A DNA stretch of 64,000 nucleotides from an uncultured delta proteobacterium (GTDB lineage Bacteria; Desulfobacterota; Desulfobacteria; Desulfobacterales; UBA2156): NCBI GenBank assembly GCA_963736855.1, contig CAVTQK010000015.1, positions 576,509 through 640,508 on the forward strand. The letters run 5' to 3'. Both the position numbers and the translations under genes were made by a program. Each line of letters begins with the position of its first letter. Within the stretch, counting starts at the first letter, position 1. This document shows positions 51,899 through 60,503 of this stretch, in pieces. A model generated the notes under the pieces. That model was not told where the DNA came from and ran no database searches. It was given only the letters and a program-made list of their open reading frames with translations.

Positions 51899-53410
51899 TC
51901 ATCTCCCTCTTCCCAAAAGCATAACCATCAAGGTATTCAGAAAAATATTGGCATCCAGCGCCAGAGACCAGGTGTCGATATAAAATAAATCCAGCCGCAT
52001 CCATTCATCAAAGCTCATATCATGTTTTTTTTGGCCGATTTGCCACAGACAGGTCATCCCCGGTTTCATGGAAAGGCGACGTCGTTGCCATATTTCATAT
52101 CTCTCCACCTCAGACGGTATGGGAGGTCTTGGACCAATAAGACTCATTTCTCCCTTTAAAACATTAATCAGCTGAGGCAACTCATCGATGAAAGTCCTTC
52201 TTAAAAAAGTTCCCACATAAGGAACAATGCGCGGGTCCTTTTTCATCTTGAAAACCGGCCCCTCGGCTTCATTGAGAGCATCAAGGTCTTTTTGCATTTT
52301 ATCCGCACCCTCAATCATGGTCCTGAATTTATAGACGTCAAAGATCCGTCCATTCCGACCACAGCGGCGTTGTTTATAAAAAACCGGTCCACGAGATGAA
52401 ATTTTAATGGCAATCGCAATCAGTAAAAACAAAGGAAAAAGAAAAATGAGAATTACTGCCGCAAAAACATAATCGATGCCGCTTTTGATCAGGAGTGCTT
52501 CCCGGCTTGGCGGTACGGCACTCAAGATAATCGTGGCAAGACCGGAGAAGACTTCAAATTCGATGAATGAAATGGCAGGATTATAAATGAGATCCTTGAT
52601 CTGCCAGTCCGGAATGATTCGTACAGGAATCCCGACTTTTCCGGCAAAGGCGATGTGTTGCTCTATCTTTCTTATGAGGTGAAGCGGCATGGCGATAAAA
52701 ATTTCGTCTATGGGGTTTTCAAGAACGATATTCTGAAAAGAATCCAGAGTGGCCAGGACTTTATAGCCATTAATTACTGTTTTGCCGATCGCTTCATCAT
52801 CTACGTCGATGCAACCGAAAATCTTGTATTTCGGCATTGCCTTCTTAACGACAGGAAGGTGAGAGCAGGTCGCATCCGTCTGCCTTTTGTTGTCCCTTTC
52901 TCCCTCTATTGCACAAATGACATCTTTTGCCCTTTCCCTGCTTCCGACAATTAAAATATTATGCAAACGATACTGAGTCTTTGGGGGATTGGTTAATTTT
53001 CTATATATGATATATTTACTGACCGTAAGAAAACCAAAATTCAAAAAGAAAAAAATACCCATTAGTATTCGGCTTATGTCCTTAATGCCTATTAAAAACA
53101 CAATCAATATCAATATTAAATTGCTTGTTGAAATCGCCTTCAGGATATTAAAGAAGATGGTTGAAAATGACTGTTTGAGATAGGAACTATATAAGCCGAA
53201 AGCTTCAAAAAGGATGTACCAAATGATAATTATCAGCAAGAGAACGATATAATAATTCGGAGATTCGGCCAGACCTTGAAACGGTCCGGGAAGGAAATAT
53301 TTTTTAATAAAATATGCCCATATAAAAGCGGCTATGGTCAAAAAAAGGTCAAGAATGCCGTGGAGTCTTAAAGATAATGTATTTCTTCTGATATCATCCA
53401 TATGATTCAA
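51899..53410 (-). CDS. Polyprenyl-phosphate glycosyl-1-phosphate transferase (WbaP-like initiating enzyme)
   Basis: N-terminal TM bundle, central domain, and C-terminal bacterial sugar transferase domain (GPVFYKQRRCGRNGRIFDVYKFRTM, PQLINVLKGEMSLIGPRP). Confidence 0.88.
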   Translation of the reverse strand: MNHMDDIRRNTLSLRLHGILDLFLTIAAFIWAYFIKKYFLPGPFQGLAESPNYYIVLLLIIIIWYILFEAFGLYSSYLKQSFSTIFFNILKAISTSNLILILIVFLIGIKDISRILMGIFFFLNFGFLTVSKYIIYRKLTNPPKTQYRLHNILIVGSRERAKDVICAIEGERDNKRQTDATCSHLPVVKKAMPKYKIFGCIDVDDEAIGKTVINGYKVLATLDSFQNIVLENPIDEIFIAMPLHLIRKIEQHIAFAGKVGIPVRIIPDWQIKDLIYNPAISFIEFEVFSGLATIILSAVPPSREALLIKSGIDYVFAAVILIFLFPLFLLIAIAIKISSRGPVFYKQRRCGRNGRIFDVYKFRTMIEGADKMQKDLDALNEAEGPVFKMKKDPRIVPYVGTFLRRTFIDELPQLINVLKGEMSLIGPRPPIPSEVERYEIWQRRRLSMKPGMTCLWQIGQKKHDMSFDEWMRLDLFYIDTWSLALDANIFLNTLMVMLLGRGR

Positions 53411-53504
53411 TATCCTGTCGACAACTCACTTTACAGTTTTTGGTTAATAGAGTGATATCGCCACATTTTTTGAGATGGAAAAGTCTGCAAAAAGGATGCA
53501 AAAG

Positions 53505-53585
53505 ATTGGTCTGTCCGGCCCCGTCAAAATGGGCTTTGCCCTTCGCTGCGCGAATTTCACGGGGTAAATCTGTTTGTTCGGGAGG
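53505..53585 (+). repeat. Island repeat R1
   Basis: TTGGTCTGTCCGG-CCCCGTCAAAAT-GGGCTTTGCCC-TTCGCTGCGCGAA-TTTCACGGGG-TAAATCTGTTTGTTCGGGAGG. Lies 87 nt beyond the stop of the RelE-like gene. Confidence 0.85.
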
Positions 53586-53671
53586 ATTGGAGAGAGAGAA
53601 AGAGTCATAAAAGACGCGGAAGAAGAGCACGTGATCCGAGTATCTAAACACAAAATGGGTGGGAATAGGGG

Positions 53672-53986
53672 TCAATCGATTCCATAAGCGGCATCATGCG
53701 GTCCAAGCAGTACAAACTTGACGGTTGCGCCGGGTGTTTCCCGACAATCTGAACATCGGATGGCCACATCGTCCCCTTTTTTTCGGCAGGTTTCGCAAAA
53801 CAGGTAAATGATGATGAAATTCCGTTTTACCGGGCAGGAATAAAAACCTTGCCAGTTCCCCTTTAACGGTTCCCCCATGGCGATGGGGTTCTGAAGAATC
53901 ATGTCGACTTTGTTTTTAACGAGTTTCTTGATGGACGAGTATTTCTTTACCGATTTCAGGAAGGCGGCTTCAAATCGGGCTTCCAT
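53672..53986 (-). CDS. RelE/ParE-superfamily toxin with an inserted CxxC...CxxC element
   Basis: GEPLKGNWQGFYSCPVKRNFIIIY resembles the RelE core. The insertion is CETCRKKGDDVAIRCSDC. Overlaps the upstream antitoxin gene by 1 nt. Confidence 0.65.
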   Translation of the reverse strand: MEARFEAAFLKSVKKYSSIKKLVKNKVDMILQNPIAMGEPLKGNWQGFYSCPVKRNFIIIYLFCETCRKKGDDVAIRCSDCRETPGATVKFVLLGPHDAAYGID

Positions 53987-54243
53987 CAGTCGCCGAAGAC
54001 CTCTTCATAGGAGTGCCATACAGCCGTTCCTTTTTGAAGTCGGACCAAAACGTCTTTCATCGCCGCATGGAAGACAGGATCGCTTAGAATGACCTCCGTG
54101 TCTCTTCCTTCCGCTTTTCGTTTCAAGGTGAGCATGTATTGAGTCACGACATCGGCCACAGTGGTTCGGTTTTCAGCGGCGAACACCTTGATGAAATCGG
54201 CAAGATCCTGATCGAGGCTGATGTTTATGCGTGTTTTTGGCAT
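53986..54243 (-). CDS. Ribbon-helix-helix (CopG-like) antitoxin
   Basis: MPKTRINISLDQDLADFIKVFAAENRTTVADVV is a typical RHH N-terminus. AAGGAGG RBS. Confidence 0.65.
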   Translation of the reverse strand: MPKTRINISLDQDLADFIKVFAAENRTTVADVVTQYMLTLKRKAEGRDTEVILSDPVFHAAMKDVLVRLQKGTAVWHSYEEVFGD

Positions 54244-54269
54244 AACGAACCTCCTTTCTGTATGTTCCC

Positions 54270-54298
54270 ATCATACACACGAAAGGAATCAATGTCAA
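54270..54298 (-). promoter_or_regulatory. Sigma70-like promoter of the RHH/RelE module
   Basis: On the minus strand: TTGACA (54298-54293), a 17-nt spacer, then TATGAT (54275-54270). Confidence 0.45.
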
Positions 54299-54336
54299 TC
54301 AACTCTTTGATCCCGATATAATAAATATGAATCTGC

Positions 54337-54425
54337 ATTGGTCTATTTGGTCTACCTGCCCCGGTGAAATGGGCTTTGCCCTTCGCTATGCGAATTTCAC
54401 TATGTGACTCTATTTGGCCGGGAGG
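54337..54425 (+). repeat. Island repeat R2
   Basis: ATTGGTCTATTTGGTCTACCTG-CCCCGGTGAAAT-GGGCTTTGCCC-TTCGCTATGCGAA-TTTCAC...TCTATTTGGCCGGGAGG. Its right end overlaps the last codons and stop (54410) of the ATPase gene. Confidence 0.85.
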
Positions 54426-55594
54426 GTTGAGATAAATCCATGAATCATAATGTTTTGTATAGAAATGTCATCAAGTTGATACCTTTCTTCGCCGTCATAT
54501 AGGACATATCCGTTCCGGCATCTGTCTTTGGTGAGATTCCTGAAATGACCGATTCCTTTTAAAAAATCTTTTGTAAAGGTGGATCCCGATTTGATTTCAA
54601 TAGGTATGAGTTGTCTTTGCTTTTTGATTAACAGATCCACTTCGTTTCCATGGGTGTCGCGATAAAAAAACAATTGGGGACGTATTCCAAGATTGTATTG
54701 GGATTTTAAAATTTCAAGTATCACGAAGTTTTCATACAACCCTCCCCGGAGAGGATCCCGTTTGGCCTGGTTTGAAGTTTCAATCCCCAGCAGATGAGAA
54801 ACCAGGCCGGTGTCAGTAAAATAGATTTTTGGAGATTTGACCACCCGCTTGTTGATATTTTCAAAAAACGGCTGCAATTCAAATATGACAAATGAGGCTT
54901 GTAACACACTGATCCAGTTTTTGATGGAAGTGCCGGAAAGGCCGATATCATTGCCAAGGGATGTGTAGTTGACAATCTGGCCGATGCGTCCTGCCAGCAG
55001 GCCAAGGAATTGTTGAAACAGATTCAGGTTTTTGACATTGATAAGCGTTCTTACATCCCGTTCCACATAGGTTTGAACATATCCATTGTAGAAGCGGCCG
55101 GGGCTGAGGCCTTTATGATGCAGGCGAGGGAAGGACCCTTTGACTATGATCTCAAATGCATCCCATTTTTTTTTATAACTGAAAAGTTCCGACAGGGAAA
55201 AAGGGAGCAGGGTCAGCAGGGCTGTCCTTCCTGCCAGGGTCTGGCTGATTGCCTGATGGACATCTGGCTGATGGCTGCCGGTAAGAATGAACATACCGGG
55301 TTTTTGTTTTTCATCGACAATCCCCTGGATATAGGACAACAATACGGGCAGGCGTTGTATTTCATCAAGTATTGCGCCGTGAGGGATATTTTTCAGGAAT
55401 CCCCGGGGATCGGTTTCCGCAGCCATACGTACGTCCGGATTTTCCATGGAGTAGTATGGTTTATCAGGAAATGTCATTCTGACCAGAGTGGTTTTTCCGG
55501 ATTGCCGTGGCCCAAAAACAGTGACAATCGGATATTCTGCTGCGGACTCAGTCAGTTCTTTTGTTATCTCGCGAATGATCATGGACGGGATCAT
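54410..55594 (-). CDS. AAA ATPase with DUF4143 C-terminal domain (paralog 1)
   Basis: Walker A GPRQSGKTT, Walker B-like GAILDEIQ, and a DUF4143-type C-terminus. 394 aa. Confidence 0.85.
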   Translation of the reverse strand: MIPSMIIREITKELTESAAEYPIVTVFGPRQSGKTTLVRMTFPDKPYYSMENPDVRMAAETDPRGFLKNIPHGAILDEIQRLPVLLSYIQGIVDEKQKPGMFILTGSHQPDVHQAISQTLAGRTALLTLLPFSLSELFSYKKKWDAFEIIVKGSFPRLHHKGLSPGRFYNGYVQTYVERDVRTLINVKNLNLFQQFLGLLAGRIGQIVNYTSLGNDIGLSGTSIKNWISVLQASFVIFELQPFFENINKRVVKSPKIYFTDTGLVSHLLGIETSNQAKRDPLRGGLYENFVILEILKSQYNLGIRPQLFFYRDTHGNEVDLLIKKQRQLIPIEIKSGSTFTKDFLKGIGHFRNLTKDRCRNGYVLYDGEERYQLDDISIQNIMIHGFISTLPAK

Positions 55595-55601
55595 ATCTTT
55601 A

Positions 55602-55640
55602 TTTGTGAAAAAATCAAGTTGTATTTTATATTTTCACAAA
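55602..55640. promoter_or_regulatory. 10-bp inverted repeat upstream of ATPase paralog 1
   Basis: TTTGTGAAAA (55602-55611) and TTTTCACAAA (55631-55640), located within 50 nt of the start codon. Confidence 0.3.
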
Positions 55641-55660
55641 AATCAGGAGTGGGATGGAGA

Positions 55661-55767
55661 GGTCTATCTGGTCTATCCGGCCCCGGTGAAATGGGCTTTG
55701 CCCTTCGCTGAGCGAATTTCAAGGGGTGAATCTGTTTGGTCGGCGGATGGTCTGTCGGTTTCCCCAG
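55661..55767 (+). repeat. Island repeat R3 (long form)
   Basis: GGTCTATCTGGTCTATCCGG-CCCCGGTGAAAT-GGGCTTTGCCC-TTCGCTGAGCGAA-TTTCAAGGGG-TGAATCTGTTTGGTCGGCGGATGGTCTGTCGGTTTCCCCAGC. Directly abuts the higA stop. Confidence 0.85.
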
Positions 55768-56115
55768 CTATATTCTCAGGTGTTGTTCATCTAACCCTAA
55801 GGCGGCGCCGATTTTTATCAGGGTCGCGATATGCAGCCGGGCACGAGGACGCTCGTATTTAACAACAGCCGCCTGAGAAACGCCCAATCGTGAAGCTAAT
55901 TCCTTTTGGGTGATACCGAGATATTCCCGCCACGCCCGGATCATTGAATCATTCCGGAGAACGTGTGCTTCAACAACTTCCTGAGGAATGCCTGCGGCAC
56001 GCGCTTTTTCAGCATCCAGAAGGGGCTTGATTCGGCACCATTCATCCCATGGGATCAGAACATATGCAGGTTTTCCGCAATATTCGATTTTTTGGTATTC
56101 AATAGGTGTGCTCAT
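55768..56115 (-). CDS. higA: HigA-like antitoxin (XRE-family HTH)
   Basis: HTH LGITQKELASRLGVSQAAVVKYE. Located downstream of and overlapping the toxin gene, in the HigBA gene order. Confidence 0.8.
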   Translation of the reverse strand: MSTPIEYQKIEYCGKPAYVLIPWDEWCRIKPLLDAEKARAAGIPQEVVEAHVLRNDSMIRAWREYLGITQKELASRLGVSQAAVVKYERPRARLHIATLIKIGAALGLDEQHLRI

Positions 56116-56353
56116 TACGCTTTCTTACCTCCTCGATACTGACAATGTTGACTTCCTCAAAAACGTTGAACAGAACCCGCCAATTACCGACTCTAAGGCG
56201 ATAACCATATTCATGGATCACCAACCTTTTCATGTTGGGTCCATCAGGGAAGGCAGACAATCCCCGAGTCGCATCAAGAATCCGTTCTTGAATCGTACGA
56301 TCACCAATCTTTGTTAATTGTTTTAACGCCTTGGGTTGCCATATAACTTTCAT
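56099..56353 (-). CDS. higB: RelE/HigB-family toxin
   Basis: 84 aa with YRLRVGNWRVLF and IVSIEEVRKRNE motifs. Confidence 0.8.
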   Translation of the reverse strand: MKVIWQPKALKQLTKIGDRTIQERILDATRGLSAFPDGPNMKRLVIHEYGYRLRVGNWRVLFNVFEEVNIVSIEEVRKRNEHTY

Positions 56354-56371
56354 TTCACAGCTATTTTAACT

Positions 56372-56405
56372 TAATATAACCTTTTGTCAATATGAAAGGT
56401 TATAT
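56372..56405. promoter_or_regulatory. Operator and promoter of higBA
   Basis: Perfect 12-bp inverted repeat AATATAACCTTT (56372-56383) / AAAGGTTATATT (56394-56405) flanking a minus-strand TTGACA. TAAAAT lies 16 nt downstream on the minus strand. Confidence 0.5.
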
Positions 56406-56419
56406 TTGATCAATTCGAC

Positions 56420-56503
56420 TCTGGCGAAATGGGCTTTGCCTTTCGCTGCGCGAATTTCACGGGTAAATCTGTCTGGTATGGATGGTCTGTCGGTTTCCCC
56501 AGC
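56420..56503 (+). repeat. Island repeat R4 (left arm degenerate)
   Basis: CTCTGGCGAAAT-GGGCTTTGCCT-TTCGCTGCGCGAA-TTTCACGGG-TAAATCTGTCTGGTATGGATGGTCTGTCGGTTTCCCCAGC. Shares the long right extension with R3. Confidence 0.8.
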
Positions 56504-56547
56504 TAGATTTTCAAGCCATGGGATCAGAACATATGCAGGTTTTCCGC
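56497..56547 (-). pseudogene. Internally deleted remnant of a second higA copy
   Basis: 56516-56547 is identical to 56046-56077 (higA codons GKPAYVLIPW). It is fused directly to a near copy of the last higA codons plus the R-repeat extension (compare 55759-55779). Confidence 0.65.
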
Positions 56548-56575
56548 TTGACAAGCTTTTAATCAAATGTATACT
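56548..56575 (+). promoter_or_regulatory. Sigma70-like promoter of the phd/yefM module
   Basis: TTGACA (56548-56553), a 16-nt spacer, then TATACT (56570-56575). Followed by two direct ATGTACAAAA repeats 20 nt apart and an AAGGAG RBS. Confidence 0.5.
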
Positions 56576-56626
56576 ATATGTACAAAATAAACAATTTGAT
56601 TATCATGTACAAAAGGAGATCACTGA

Positions 56627-56878
56627 ATGATAAATAAAGTAACAACGGCTGACGTAAGAAAAAATTTATCTCATATTATCAATAAGGTGGCATATGGAAA
56701 AGAATCCTTTGTGCTGACCCGAAGAGGCCAAGCGGTCGCTGCGCTCGTCTCCATCGATGATCTGAAACTCATTGGGGACATTGAAGAGCTTCTAGATATC
56801 GAAGATGCTTGGAAAGCCCGAAATGAAACGGGTGAAAACATCCCTTGGGAAACGCTAAGAGCGGAGCTTAACCTTTGA
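56627..56878 (+). CDS. Phd/YefM-family antitoxin
   Basis: KVTTADVRKNLSHIINKVAYGKESFVLTRRGQAVAALVSIDD is a typical Phd/YefM N-terminus. Overlaps the toxin start by 4 nt. Confidence 0.8.
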   Translation: MINKVTTADVRKNLSHIINKVAYGKESFVLTRRGQAVAALVSIDDLKLIGDIEELLDIEDAWKARNETGENIPWETLRAELNL

Positions 56879-57063
56879 AATACAGGGTTGAATTTAAACA
56901 ATCAGCAGCAAACGCCTTAAAAAAGCTGCCAAAATCAGAAAAGAAGCGTATTGGGGAAAAAATAGACTCGCTATCAGAAGCACTTCCGGACAGCAGATTG
57001 ACAAAAATGAAAGGGGAAAACCCCTCGGTTTTAATCCAAATAAACCCGGCTGATTATGATTGA
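56875..57063 (+). pseudogene. Truncated RelE/ParE-family toxin
   Basis: MKYRVEFKQSAANALKKLPKSEKKRIGEKIDSL... is a RelE/ParE N-terminus. The catalytic C-terminal half is missing, with a TGA after ...INPADYD. The ATPase gene starts 34 nt later in the same frame. Confidence 0.55.
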
Positions 57064-57096
57064 CAATCGATTTTAGATGGCTTAATAACCATTTTC

Positions 57097-58443
57097 ATGC
57101 TGGATAAAGAAGTTGAAAACAGACTTTTTTTGCTGAATCCTTGGTTGACTCACCCTAAAGAGGCAGAGAAGATCTCATCGCGCTTTTTACCGCCGGTATA
57201 TGTAAAACGACAAATCGAAAACCTGCCAATGAGCCCAAATAGGGCTATCCTGATCATCGGCCCAAGGCAATCCGGAAAATCAACCCTTGTGTGGCACCAG
57301 CTTCTTCCATTGTTACCGGGCGTTCTTTTTATTAACATGGAAGATCCTCAGCTTCGCTTAGGTTGTCAAAATGCAATTGAATTGGCCGCATACATCAGGG
57401 CAAATCTTCCATCTCTTAAATCCGTATTTATTGATGAGATACAGCACCTGGATGAAGGAGCGCTTTTTGTTAAAGGACTGGTTGACAGCCGATTGGACTT
57501 GCCGATCTGGGTGACCGGATCAGCTTCATTCCACTTGCGAAGCCGCACTCGGGAGTCCCTTGCCGGGAGGGCAACTCGCCGGTTATTACTACCCTTTAGC
57601 CATTCAGAATTATTGACCTATCAAAAGGAATCCGACGACCCCGCTGCCTTGAGGCAATATAGCCGAAAAATTATGCAGCATCAGTTGATCTTTGGCAGCT
57701 ATCCTGCGGTATATATTGCTCAGAGTGATACTGAAAAACGATTCCTGTTAAGTGATTTGGTTGAATCCCTTATCCTCAGAGATGCCTCAGATATCTTCAG
57801 AATCAGGCGGGTGGACGCATTTCGGAAATTGCTCTCTTTACTGGCAGGTCAGATTGGCCAATTAATTAATTTATCGGAACTGGCATCGATCTGCAACGTG
57901 GATGTGGGAACGGTGAGTTCCTATATTGAGATCCTGGATGAAAGTCACATCATAAAAAAGATCAATCCGTTTGCTGCGGGGAAACGTCGTGAAATCACGA
58001 CAAATCCAAAAGTCTATTTTATGGATAATGGAATTCGCAACCAACTGCTGCAAAATTTTGAAAAAGCCTGGGAAGTCAGAGTTGATAAAGGTCAGCTATT
58101 TGAAAATTGGGCTTTTTCAGAAATATTAAAGCGATTGCCATTTCAGAGCGATCTCAAGTTTTGGAGGAGCAAATCCGGGGCAGAAGTTGATGCAGTAATT
58201 GAGCATTCCGGGAAAATTTTTATTTTAGAAATCAAGGCATCGCAATTAAAAATACCCGCTATTTCGAGATCGCTACGAAGTTTTATTGATGCTTATCAAC
58301 CGAAAAATGTTGCCGTCCTTAATTTTGGGCTTGAAACGACCAAGGACATCGGAAAAGCACGGATTCATTTCTTAACGCCTGTTTCTTTCCCTTTCTGGAT
58401 AGAGGGCATCTTTTCAAGTATTTTTTCATCTTCCAGTGCCTAA
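57097..58443 (+). CDS. AAA ATPase with DUF4143 C-terminal domain (paralog 2)
   Basis: Walker A GPRQSGKST, Walker B-like VFIDEIQ, and a DUF4143-type C-terminus. 448 aa. Confidence 0.85.
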   Translation: MLDKEVENRLFLLNPWLTHPKEAEKISSRFLPPVYVKRQIENLPMSPNRAILIIGPRQSGKSTLVWHQLLPLLPGVLFINMEDPQLRLGCQNAIELAAYIRANLPSLKSVFIDEIQHLDEGALFVKGLVDSRLDLPIWVTGSASFHLRSRTRESLAGRATRRLLLPFSHSELLTYQKESDDPAALRQYSRKIMQHQLIFGSYPAVYIAQSDTEKRFLLSDLVESLILRDASDIFRIRRVDAFRKLLSLLAGQIGQLINLSELASICNVDVGTVSSYIEILDESHIIKKINPFAAGKRREITTNPKVYFMDNGIRNQLLQNFEKAWEVRVDKGQLFENWAFSEILKRLPFQSDLKFWRSKSGAEVDAVIEHSGKIFILEIKASQLKIPAISRSLRSFIDAYQPKNVAVLNFGLETTKDIGKARIHFLTPVSFPFWIEGIFSSIFSSSSA

Positions 58444-58900
58444 AATCATCACTTTAAGTGTGTTTAAAAGAATCTTTGCATCCAACTTCGGCGACCAGTT
58501 ATCAATGTAAAAAAGATCCAGCTTAATCCACTCATCAAAACTTATATTATGCCTGTTGGGACTTGTTTGCCACAGGCAGGTCATCCCCGGTTTCATGGAA
58601 AGGCGCCTCTGTTTCCATATTTCTTATTTTTCCACCTCAGATGGTATGGGAGGCCTTGGACCGATGAAACTCATTTCGCCTTTTAACATATTAACAAGCT
58701 GAGGAATTTCATCGATAAAAGTTCTCCTTAAAAAGGTTCCGACATAAGGGACGATTGCGAGGGTCTTTTTTATCTTGAAGACCGGTCCCTTAGTCTCATT
58801 GAGCGATTCCAATTCCGTTTGTTGTTTATCGGTATCGGCAACCATAGTGCGGAATTTATATACATCGAATATGCGGCCGTTTAACCCGAAATTCTGGAAA
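58426..58900 (-). pseudogene. 5'-truncated, nonsense-containing partial copy of the wbaP-like sugar-transferase domain
   Basis: The minus strand reads GLNGRIFDVYKFRTM...[45 protein letters not shown]...LNTLKVMILGTGR*. This is collinear with the C-terminus of 51899-53410, about 75% nt identity by eye. It has an in-frame TAA, lacks the N-terminal two thirds, and its 3' end overlaps the ATPase 3' end. Confidence 0.8.
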
Positions 58901-59000
58901 TTTGAGATCCATCCCTCTAATCCATAAACTTACTGATTTGAGCCGTTTGATCATAGACTTCCGAAAAAACCACCAACTCCCCAGATTAGGGCCAATTTCA

Positions 59001-59756
59001 TTATCTGACCTCCTTCAATATCAAAGGTATCAGTGCTAATCCTTTCAAGTATCTTGGGACGAACCGTCTTGGATCATGAATACATCGTAACAGCCATCCC
59101 AAATGGAAGGCATCGAAAATAGAAGGTATGGACGCCTGCTTTCCAGTTAGGAAAGCAATGGCGGCTCCTGTGCAGATGATTCCGGTTTTAAAAGAAAGAT
59201 TGCTTTTCAGGTAAAATCCAAGCTTTTCCTGGATACCACCACCTAGGTTGATGAGTACATATTTGGGTTTTCTCTTTTCCAGGGTCTCTAGCAGTTCAGT
59301 ATCTTCAATATTTTTTGAAGAATAGATCGGCGCTACGTAGTGGTCGGAAAGACTGATTACTATTCCCATTGATTTCAAAAGGTTGTGATTCAACATCATC
59401 TCTTTTTCTTCTGGGTCGACCAAAAAAAGGCATCTTTCCTTTCTCAATATCTCCTCTGCGAGAAAATGCCGCAGAAATGTGAGGCCGCTTAATTTCCCTA
59501 TCTTGATTCCCTTGAAATATTTTAAAAGCAGGATGAGGAAACCACTGTCTGGTATTGCGAAATCGCTTTTCATTAGTGCCAAATGGTGCTCTGCGTCTTT
59601 GGAAATGGCCGATAGGACAGGTGCTGATGGTACCACCATTAGTGCTCCATTGTCTAGGAGGTTTTTTACAGATGGGTAACCTTCTGTAAGAAATCTTATG
59701 CGCAGTATATTACAAAATCGTAAACCATTAACCACGGTCGTTTCTTTGAGTGGCAT
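59001..59756 (-). CDS. WecG/TagA/CpsF-family (GT26) glycosyltransferase
   Basis: 251 aa with PDSGFLILL and VLINLGGGIQEKLGFYL blocks typical of GT26. Confidence 0.75.
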   Translation of the reverse strand: MPLKETTVVNGLRFCNILRIRFLTEGYPSVKNLLDNGALMVVPSAPVLSAISKDAEHHLALMKSDFAIPDSGFLILLLKYFKGIKIGKLSGLTFLRHFLAEEILRKERCLFLVDPEEKEMMLNHNLLKSMGIVISLSDHYVAPIYSSKNIEDTELLETLEKRKPKYVLINLGGGIQEKLGFYLKSNLSFKTGIICTGAAIAFLTGKQASIPSIFDAFHLGWLLRCIHDPRRFVPRYLKGLALIPLILKEVR

Positions 59757-60503
59757 CGACTTCTCTTATACTCTCATTCTTTTTTTGTGAATAAAAATCC
59801 CCTTGAATTGTCCGTCCATGTTTATCACAAACCAAATTGTTAACCCCGCTAAGATGGAAACCCCGATTGCTGAGCCAGATAGTGATGTCATGGGCCAAGG
59901 TTTGACCGGAATATAACTCCACAAAAGAGCATTCGGCATACACGTAAGAAAAACGTTCCAGAAGTTCCTCGCATCCCCGAAGCGCTTCCAGTTCGAAACC
60001 TTGAACGTCCAATTTGATGAGTGCTGGTTGAACGATTTCATCGGCTGTAATAAAATCAGACAATCGACCTATGCTGACCATTTCAGTGCGGACCTCTCTC
60101 GTTTCCGGAGAGAGGTTCTTGTGCATGTTAGAAATTGGAAGGAGTGAGAAAGAATCGTCTGCTGCTGTGATATGAAGAGTTGCCATTCCCCTTTTCGGCC
60201 CGATGGCTGAAGTATAAAGAGTGACATTAGGTTCTAAATGAAATACCTTTCGGAAATCAGCCGCAGCATGGACAAGCGGTTCAAAACTGATAATGCGGGC
60301 TGTTGACGCCCATTGGCGTACTGCTAGGGCAAATTGCCCGCGATTGGCACCGATATCCACCACCGTTTGAAAACAAGAAAAAAGATCGCTCGATGCTCGG
60401 CGCCGGCAAGCACACGGTGAAAAACCAGCGCCCTCAGCAACCGAGGTGCTCGAATCACCTGGGTCAGCTTATCCAGCCGGGTGAGGAAAAGCTGGAAGTT
60501 CAT
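59728..60503 (-). pseudogene. FkbM-family methyltransferase with a frameshift in a homopolymer (A6 at 60378-60383, plus strand)
   Basis: ORF 59728..60363 starts right at the VVDIGANRGQFAL motif. The expected N-terminus MNFQLFLTRLDKLTQVIRAPRLLRALVFHRVLAGAEHRAIF is in another frame, starting at ATG 60503 (ATGA overlap with the track-frame GT4 stop). Adding one T restores ...AIFFSCFQTVVDIGANRGQF. Confidence 0.75.

Follow-up and report, generated by a model that had tools for sequence, protein, structure and literature searches.

Among systems that store and shuffle single-gene cassettes, only integrons are well understood, and they are detected by their attC sites and their integrase, IntI. Here we analyse a stretch of 64,000 nt (further, the window) from the sulfate-reducer-type chromosome of an uncultured delta proteobacterium (contig CAVTQK010000015.1, positions 576,509 to 640,508), where toxin-antitoxin (TA) and ATPase genes are separated by direct copies of a structured repeat, R. 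As relatives vary the order and the number of the units, with the breaks inside R, the array behaves similarly to an integron cassette array; judged by its sequence, it seems to work like one but fails the tests that define attC. We tentatively interpret the region at 53.5-56.5 kb as a chromosomal integron-like cassette array with a new kind of folded recombination site, whose enzyme would be encoded elsewhere.

Repeat R and the cassettes between its copies

The repeat search of the window yielded four direct, co-oriented copies of R (53507-53581, 54347-54421, 55669-55743 and 56407-56481), all on the minus strand between 53.48 and 56.50 kb; they are aligned and described below in the minus-strand reading. 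The identity of the copies to R1 is 72-89%. Depending on the bounds taken, the length of R is about 75-117 nt (the repeat itself is about 80 nt), and the copies are listed here as R1 (53482..53598), R2 (54323..54438), R3 (55644..55762) and R4 (56382..56497). R1 is the terminal repeat, situated approximately 70-100 nt upstream of the start of a wbaP-like gene, and R4 is the most degenerate copy. The near-invariant 32-nt core of R, GAAATTCGCnnnGCGAAGGGCAAAGCCCATTT on the minus strand (53527-53558 in R1), is matched four times at a tolerance of one mismatch, versus zero matches in 100 shuffles. A covariance model made from 15 distinct copies scores R1, R3 and R4 at 108, 112 and 99 bits, respectively, and all four copies are recovered by the repeat search, the core match and the covariance model; the model finds no fifth copy in the window, i.e. 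none in the other 59 kb.

Direct motifs, GACCARAYAGA/ATAGACCA, are present on both sides of R. The left flank of R2 contributes the final codons and the TAG stop codon of a DUF4143 ATPase gene. A small open reading frame (ORF) within R (frame MKFAQRRAKPI...) was rejected, because two copies of R have an in-frame stop codon.

The minus-strand order in the window is (deleted higA)-R4-[higBA]-R3-[ATPase]-R2-[RHH/relE]-R1-wbaP, and hence there are three repeat-bounded units, all between R4 and R1. An earlier note on this DNA, made from the sequence alone, had proposed the order from R4 to R1 and the common orientation of the four repeats, and both are borne out by the repeat search and the core count. 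Cassette 1 (55768..56390, minus strand) comprises a promoter-like site (56390-56363), a HigB/ParE-type toxin gene (56099-56353) and a gene for the helix-turn-helix antitoxin HigA (55768-56115). Cassette 2 (54410..55640, minus strand) encodes a DUF4143 ATPase-nuclease with the AAA_14 and DUF4143 domains and a match to the PADLOC profile PDC-S01; it has its own promoter (55617-55590) and an operator-like inverted repeat, GTGAAAAT...TTTTTCAC. Cassette 3 (53672..54298, minus strand) combines a promoter-like site (54298-54270), a DUF6364/RHH antitoxin gene (53986-54243) and a RelE/YafQ-like toxin gene (53672-53986). Between R4 and higB, the higBA promoter region is spanned by a perfect 7/7 inverted pair, ATATAAC...GTTATAT (window 56341-56405), probably a TA operator and not an attC site.

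All units share one layout on the minus strand, namely R, one to three ATAGACCA-type octamers, a promoter, the gene or genes, a GACCAAAYAGATTT flank and the next R, and every cassette has its own predicted strong sigma-70-like promoter site directly after R. The cassette borders are tight. In one cassette of the related contigs, cassette X, R begins 13 nt past the toxin stop codon. Five other genomes have ATPase homologs without R, and the homology of these loci to the window begins at the promoter operator, approximately 70 nt upstream of the ATG, and ends approximately five codons short of the stop codon.

The predicted DNA fold of the ~46-nt element of R is a three-way junction that consists of an outer stem, CCCCGTGAAAT/ATTTCACCGGGG, with one bulged base and a branched top, and two triloop mini-hairpins, TTCGC-nnn-GCGAA and GGGC-AAA-GCCC. 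The fold z-scores of the copies range from -2.3 to -4.4, and in 19 distinct copies 93% of the pair cells are paired, versus 31-53% with slid partners. The loop of the first hairpin is hypervariable (seven variants), its stem being nearly invariant. Most copies of R are too alike for covariation to show. The divergent copy at L004:1328-1376 has the mini-hairpins TTGAC-GAA-GTCAA and GAGC-GGA-GCTC and adopts the same fold, both mini-hairpins being retained via three compensatory pair changes; adding this copy gives a covariation score of 0.124 versus 0.098, which 3 of 500 shuffles reach. The triloops of R are closed by C-G pairs, and many have the form G-N-A; such three-nucleotide loops typify stable mini-hairpins of DNA, not of RNA. 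We infer that R most likely acts as folded single-stranded DNA.

On the other hand, R could operate purely at the RNA level, as a 3'-untranslated-region stabiliser or a terminator without a U-tract that insulates neighbouring TA operons, and play no role in DNA rearrangement. The position of R fits this: in every case R closes a transcription unit at its 3' end, in the sense strand, and a promoter comes directly after it. We nevertheless consider an RNA role highly improbable: there is no T-run, the terminator scan makes no call at R, the loops are of the DNA type described above, and an RNA role alone would account neither for the identity of R across unrelated cassettes nor for the breakpoints inside it. 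No Rfam 15 match to R was obtained at E <= 1 (50-62 kb), and there was none at the gathering threshold in the entire window and in contigs L003, L006 and L009. The possibility of a known ribozyme (hammerhead or others) was dismissed, R having neither an Rfam match nor a ribozyme core motif.

Cassette order and breakpoints in related contigs

The scan of metagenome contigs for the core retrieved six contigs with R, and one Logan contig, L015, was added via a look-up of the RHH protein; its RHH/relE cassette is identical to that of the window and is flanked by R2/R1. Every other copy of R found lies in a co-oriented TA/ATPase array on one of these seven contigs, and the genes are co-oriented with R in every case. 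Four contigs (L003, L006, L007 and L008) overlap each other, and in the genes that they have in common with the window the identity is 91-95%. Combined, they give the order higA-R-[MNT/HEPN]-R-[relB/relE-like]-R-[423-aa ATPase]-R-[RHH/relE]-R-[DUF4143 ATPase]-R-wbaP, where the 423-aa ATPase matches PADLOC PDC-S27. Compared to this order, the DUF4143 ATPase and RHH/relE cassettes are swapped in the window (the latter lies upstream of the former in L006/L007), and three of the relatives' cassettes are missing from it. The remaining two contigs, L004 and L005, belong to a separate data set; in them, R is situated beside other TA genes, hicAB and mqsA-like. The cassettes seen are three in the window plus at least six more in L003-L008.

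The likeness to sedentary integrons proposed in the earlier note is supported by these reordered cassettes. The note had also named in advance, as the decisive observation, gain or loss of modules at repeat borders in related strains, and this is what we observed, in the form of the swap and the three additional cassettes.

The flanks of R follow the adjacent cassettes. Where the upstream cassette is shared, the copies have 1-3 differences in the 26 positions of the left flank and 11-12 in the 24 positions of the right flank; where the downstream cassette is shared, there are 0-2 differences in the 24 right-flank positions. In particular, R1 and L006a, both adjacent to wbaP, have right flanks with two differences in 24 positions, and those of R3 and L006b, both upstream of the ATPase gene, are identical (0/24). 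All breakpoints fall in alignment columns 44-84, that is, in the 41-nt junction core of R. Polymorphisms of the core, including the loop of the first hairpin, track neither of the neighbouring cassettes, and therefore the crossover is not narrowable below 41 nt.

Two toxin genes differ in integrity between these contigs. The toxin gene of cassette X has a nonsense codon in L003/L007 (L003 1510-1783) and is intact in L008 (15-284); the RelE-like gene is split in L006/L007 (L006 3648-4146) and intact in the window (53672-53986). Toxin genes are thus decaying in some strains. L006 also has approximately 400 nt (1870-2277) that separate its terminal R from the start of wbaP and are missing from the window.

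If the interpretation we favour is correct, R would be a recombination site that the enzyme probably recognises in its folded single-stranded form. Two copies in direct orientation would recombine, so that the cassette between them is excised, and the excised cassette would be re-inserted via recombination with a resident R; repeated, such excision and re-insertion would lead to differing cassette orders and contents among related strains. The exchange would then be site-specific rather than homologous, and the enzyme acting on R would be encoded in another part of the genome. Cassette-based gene shuffling would be broader than integrons, the current detection tools would miss a part of cassette arrays, and anaerobic sediment bacteria would be trading TA and defence genes by an undescribed mechanism. 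R, with its ~80 nt, would provide a small concrete substrate for fishing out the enzyme.

Several observations weigh against this interpretation. No integrase, transposase, resolvase, HUH or other recombinase domain was found in any tested ORF of the window, which agrees with the earlier note, and the recombinase-free span beside the array is 53 kb on one side and 5.5 kb on the other. The earlier note had suggested looking for a recombinase near other copies of R, and none is present on any R-bearing contig. The breakpoints are confined to the most conserved 41 nt, where homologous recombination would also cross over, and one unequal crossover plus two deletions between direct repeats would convert the other order into that of the window. 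As for the fold, the covariation rests mainly on one divergent copy in an alignment fitted to the model, and the counts of wobbles and mismatches favour neither strand for folding. Finally, R is very rare in public data.

The exact-pattern scan of 185,579 reference genomes did not find R beyond two chance-level matches, in contigs from Planctomycetia and Christensenellales; these share only the double mini-hairpin, approximately at the chance expectation (22-26 bits), and were rejected. There was no match in viral contigs (two patterns) or in plasmids and phages (blastn), nor did R-translated peptides, used as protein queries for further contigs, produce one. The loci of ATPase homologs at 81-88% identity (L009-L014, L019-L026) contain no R.

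The main alternative is that R is passive, being a shared 3'-end, an insulator-type sequence or a joining relic, and that the cassettes are rearranged by ordinary homologous or slipped-strand recombination, with no dedicated enzyme. Both an undescribed recombination system and accretion of units by ordinary recombination between repeats, the two options raised in the earlier note, are compatible with the data. A passive repeat is in line with the lack of a recombinase in the window and with the position of the breakpoints in the longest stretch of identity. It leaves unexplained why at least nine unrelated units are joined, within approximately 20 nt of the promoter and the stop codon, to the same structured element, why the three-way-junction fold is retained via compensatory changes, and why R is confined to these arrays. 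Moreover, the shared identity amounts to only about 41 nt with mismatches, and such a stretch is a poor RecA substrate. We regard a passive R as possible, albeit rather doubtful. If true, the locus would be a clean natural case of defence genes being reshuffled by repeats next to a glycan locus, which would be of modest interest.

The DUF4143 ATPase and the surroundings of the array

The ATPase of cassette 2 is a candidate partner of R. In its family, an inverted repeat, GTGAAAAT-N17/18-ATTTTCAC, overlaps the -35 region of the promoter in every locus examined, at least five of them independent: the window (55600-55640, minus strand), L009 (5882), L011 (1637), L019 (222), and upstream of the ATPase genes in L024 and L014. 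The half-site in the ATPase promoter is one A shorter than the arms of the R outer stem and otherwise the same. In all DNA examined, the pattern of the stem arms, GTGAAAT...ATTTCAC, is seen only in the copies of R and in ATPase promoters, and it is absent from 200 shuffles. The protein model (pLDDT, the predicted local distance difference test score, 84) resembles ATPases of the Orc1/Cdc6, RuvB and STAND types and the Can2 nuclease. A D...ExK motif is readable in the sequence (EVDLL...IEIK), and DUF4143 is classed in the PD-(D/E)XK nuclease superfamily (PMC3424549).

Given the match between the operator half-site and the R stem, and the resemblance to nucleases and ATPases, the DUF4143 ATPase might bind or cut R. 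In the strong form of this explanation, R is the binding or cleavage site of the AAA+ ATPase-nuclease of the array, defined by GTGAAA(A)T half-sites that the promoter of the ATPase gene shares with the R stem; cleavage by the nuclease at R might stimulate cassette recombination or homing, or else R might be a regulatory decoy. The conserved promoter repeat, the restriction of the stem-arm pattern, and the structural resemblance together with the superfamily assignment argue for it. At the same time, the half-site match is 7 nt long and was noticed after the fact, binding of the operator by the ATPase is itself a supposition, the homologs at 81-88% identity occur without R, and the family is a candidate for phage defence (PDC-S01), not a known recombination protein. 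Hence we consider this explanation unlikely.

A further possibility is that R belongs to an undescribed cassette-exchange system, which would be based on a folded single-stranded three-way junction with direct octamers and served by an enzyme other than IntI, perhaps the DUF4143 ATPase-nuclease of the array. We view it as conceivable, with considerable doubt. The repeats of contig L009 hint that lineage-specific versions of such systems could be common and invisible to attC-based tools.

Contig L009 (1-7602; ENA ERZ23498652 scaffold_9535), from Desulfobacterales, carries a co-oriented TA/defence array with the units Phd-PIN, MNT-HEPN, DUF6922-AbiEii, Fic, RHH-ParE and an ATPase 88% identical to that of the window. 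Its junction repeat differs from R and consists of CATCTGCG x3 plus tandem ACCAAGC heptamers; CATCTGCG x3 sometimes pairs with an inverted CGCAGAT x3, forming a long interrupted hairpin. This may be another array of the kind seen in the window, in a version specific to its lineage.

At the proximal end of the array, an internally deleted higA remnant (56480..56547, minus strand) precedes R4 and abuts the phd promoter; its two pieces, one N-terminal and one C-terminal, are 94-95% identical to the intact gene (matching segments 55745-55778 and 56041-56078). The remnant would thus be a trace of cassette duplication and subsequent deletion, and also of truncation of the array, whose proximal end it presumably marks. 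Such a duplicated and then internally deleted gene indicates that duplication and deletion occur in the array, in agreement with a passive repeat.

Beyond it, outside the repeat array, the plus strand carries genes for a Phd antitoxin (56627-56878), a 62-aa RelE-like stub, relE' (56875-57063), and the second DUF4143 ATPase paralog with AAA_14 and DUF4143 (57097-58443). The covariance model finds no copy of R in this phd/relE'/ATPase2 segment (56.6-58.4 kb). The earlier note had each unit of the island followed by the repeat; this applies to the three units between R4 and R1 and fails for phd/relE' and ATPase2. The gene content it listed (RHH and RelE-like genes, HigB/HigA, two DUF4143 ATPases, Phd and the RelE-like stub) agrees with the domain matches, the stub being without a family match. 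The type II TA families matched are ParE_toxin with HTH_3, PhdYeFM, and RelE_StbE (30.2 bits, cut-off 27.9) with DUF6364. The ATPases match the PADLOC PDC-S01 profile at E = 1.8e-105 (ATPase1) and 1.2e-86 (ATPase2), and the defence role is predicted from profiles.

The island starts near an intact wbaP-like sugar transferase gene (51899..53410, minus strand), as had been described. Its far border is not simply the rest of the glycan locus, as had been supposed, and is formed by a C-terminal wbaP pseudogene with an in-frame stop codon (58426-58845, minus strand), convergent with the second ATPase paralog. The notion of an AT-richer island did not hold up either: the GC content is 44% in the island, 40% in wbaP, 43% in the adjoining glycosyltransferase genes and 51% in the rest of the window, so low GC (40-44%) spans the entire glycan stretch 51899-60400 and does not mark the island in particular.

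An intact version of the wbaP and convergent ATPase pair is present in L016 (10001-13542), with wbaP 73% identical and ATPase2 73% identical to the ATPase convergent with wbaP. L017 (187-559) contains fragments of wbaP and ATPase with unrelated TA genes between them, plus an intact wbaP. The pseudogene and the convergent second ATPase form an older arrangement, and the phd/relE'/ATPase2 segment as a whole is older background to the array. Given the arrangements in L016 and L017, the site adjoining wbaP is a long-standing hot spot of TA and defence genes with wbaP duplicates at its flanks, occupied in one lineage by the R array. Such gathering of TA genes at the wbaP locus even without R speaks for a passive repeat, and the wbaP pseudogene at the island border is consistent with it as well. 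A weak R-like match upstream of a wbaP homolog in L017 (3629-3670, 22.7 bits) was set aside, as it shows no junction fold (z = -0.9).

A parallel to the wbaP pseudogene is seen in L011 (2900-8750) and L012 (5240-8505), where a glycan locus has TA modules among four to five decayed partial copies of a UDP-GlcNAc 2-epimerase gene, the intact copy of which follows directly downstream. TA modules between decayed duplicates of a glycan gene are a signature of homologous recombination, and this too favours a passive repeat. As for other features, no tRNA genes or Rfam families were found in window 1-64000, and no cobalamin riboswitch was found near the cob/btu-type genes (29-37 kb and 45 kb).

Comparison with known systems

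Like repetitive extragenic palindromic sequences (REP), bacterial interspersed mosaic elements (BIME) and miniature inverted-repeat transposable elements (MITE), R is a short structured intergenic repeat. In contrast to them, in the window and the metagenome contigs it is restricted to cassette junctions and not dispersed, and it has neither the terminal inverted repeats nor the GTAG-type signature of REP-associated tyrosine transposases (RAYT). The pdif modules of Acinetobacter plasmids are also small, often TA-bearing, bounded by short recombination sites and found in varied contexts; however, pdif sites are 28 bp long (11-6-11) and alternate in orientation around each module, with XerC and XerD arms on either side of a 6-bp spacer, whereas R is ~80 nt long, structured, chromosomal and of one orientation, and its sequence shows no 11-6-11 organisation.

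Conservation of structure above that of the loop sequence relates R to recombination sites that are folded, such as the attC bottom strand, attP(+) of the CTX phage (XerCD) and the end hairpins of IS200/IS605 (Y1 HUH). A common strand orientation of all copies, as in R, is likewise shared with folded single-stranded substrates. Unlike attP(+), R has no dif-like XerC and XerD arms, and there is no Xer gene nearby. Unlike IS200/IS605, each R junction has one hairpin element instead of separate left-end and right-end hairpins with cleavage tetranucleotides, and the window lacks TnpA, which may also act in trans.

The comparison with attC is the closest one. If the array were a genuine cluster of integron cassettes with atypical attC sites and IntI encoded elsewhere, a CALIN (a cluster of attC sites lacking an integrase), the architecture, the co-orientation, the TA-rich content, the lineage-homogeneous sites and the shuffling would all match those of sedentary chromosomal integrons. 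Indeed, the 5' flank of R contains ACCAAAC, a 6/7 match to RYYYAAC at the expected distance from the stem, and the stem has one bulged base. Since CALINs also lack an integrase, the absence of intI from the window, a point against integron cassettes as such, excludes only a complete integron. On the 3' side, R lacks the complementary box that attC requires (R''/R', RYYYAAC...GTTRRRY) and has AGACCA in place of GTTRRRY (GTTTGGT). Pairs of AAC...GTT boxes are not enriched (88 versus 93 expected), and none spans the copies of R consistently; the absence of attC boxes reported in the earlier note is confirmed by both observations.

The position of the crossover also bears on this. In integrons, the crossover point separates G from TT in the GTTRRRY core (PMC8876359). 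On the opposite-strand reading, the sole GTT box of R (GTTTGGT on the plus strand, columns ~25-31) would have to be the crossover. It is not, as columns 18-31 and 32-43 go with one and the same cassette, so the 12 nt adjoining the box belong to the wrong cassette for a crossover there. Altogether, an atypical attC seems improbable to us. R thus differs from attC in the crossover, which is not at a GTT core, and in its build, a three-way junction with two conserved triloop mini-hairpins and direct flanking motifs. Its cassettes differ from typical integron cassettes in that each one seen has its own promoter, and no IntI is known to be associated with them.

The likenesses concern the array as a whole. 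As in integron arrays and CALINs, co-oriented cassettes each end in a structured imperfect palindrome, the ORF ends extend into the site, and, as in CALINs, there is no integrase near the array. Similarly to sedentary chromosomal integrons, the sites are homogeneous within a lineage, and the content is rich in TA genes with their own promoters. Finally, both in integron arrays and in the R array the order and the content of cassettes vary among close relatives, with the breaks situated within the site.

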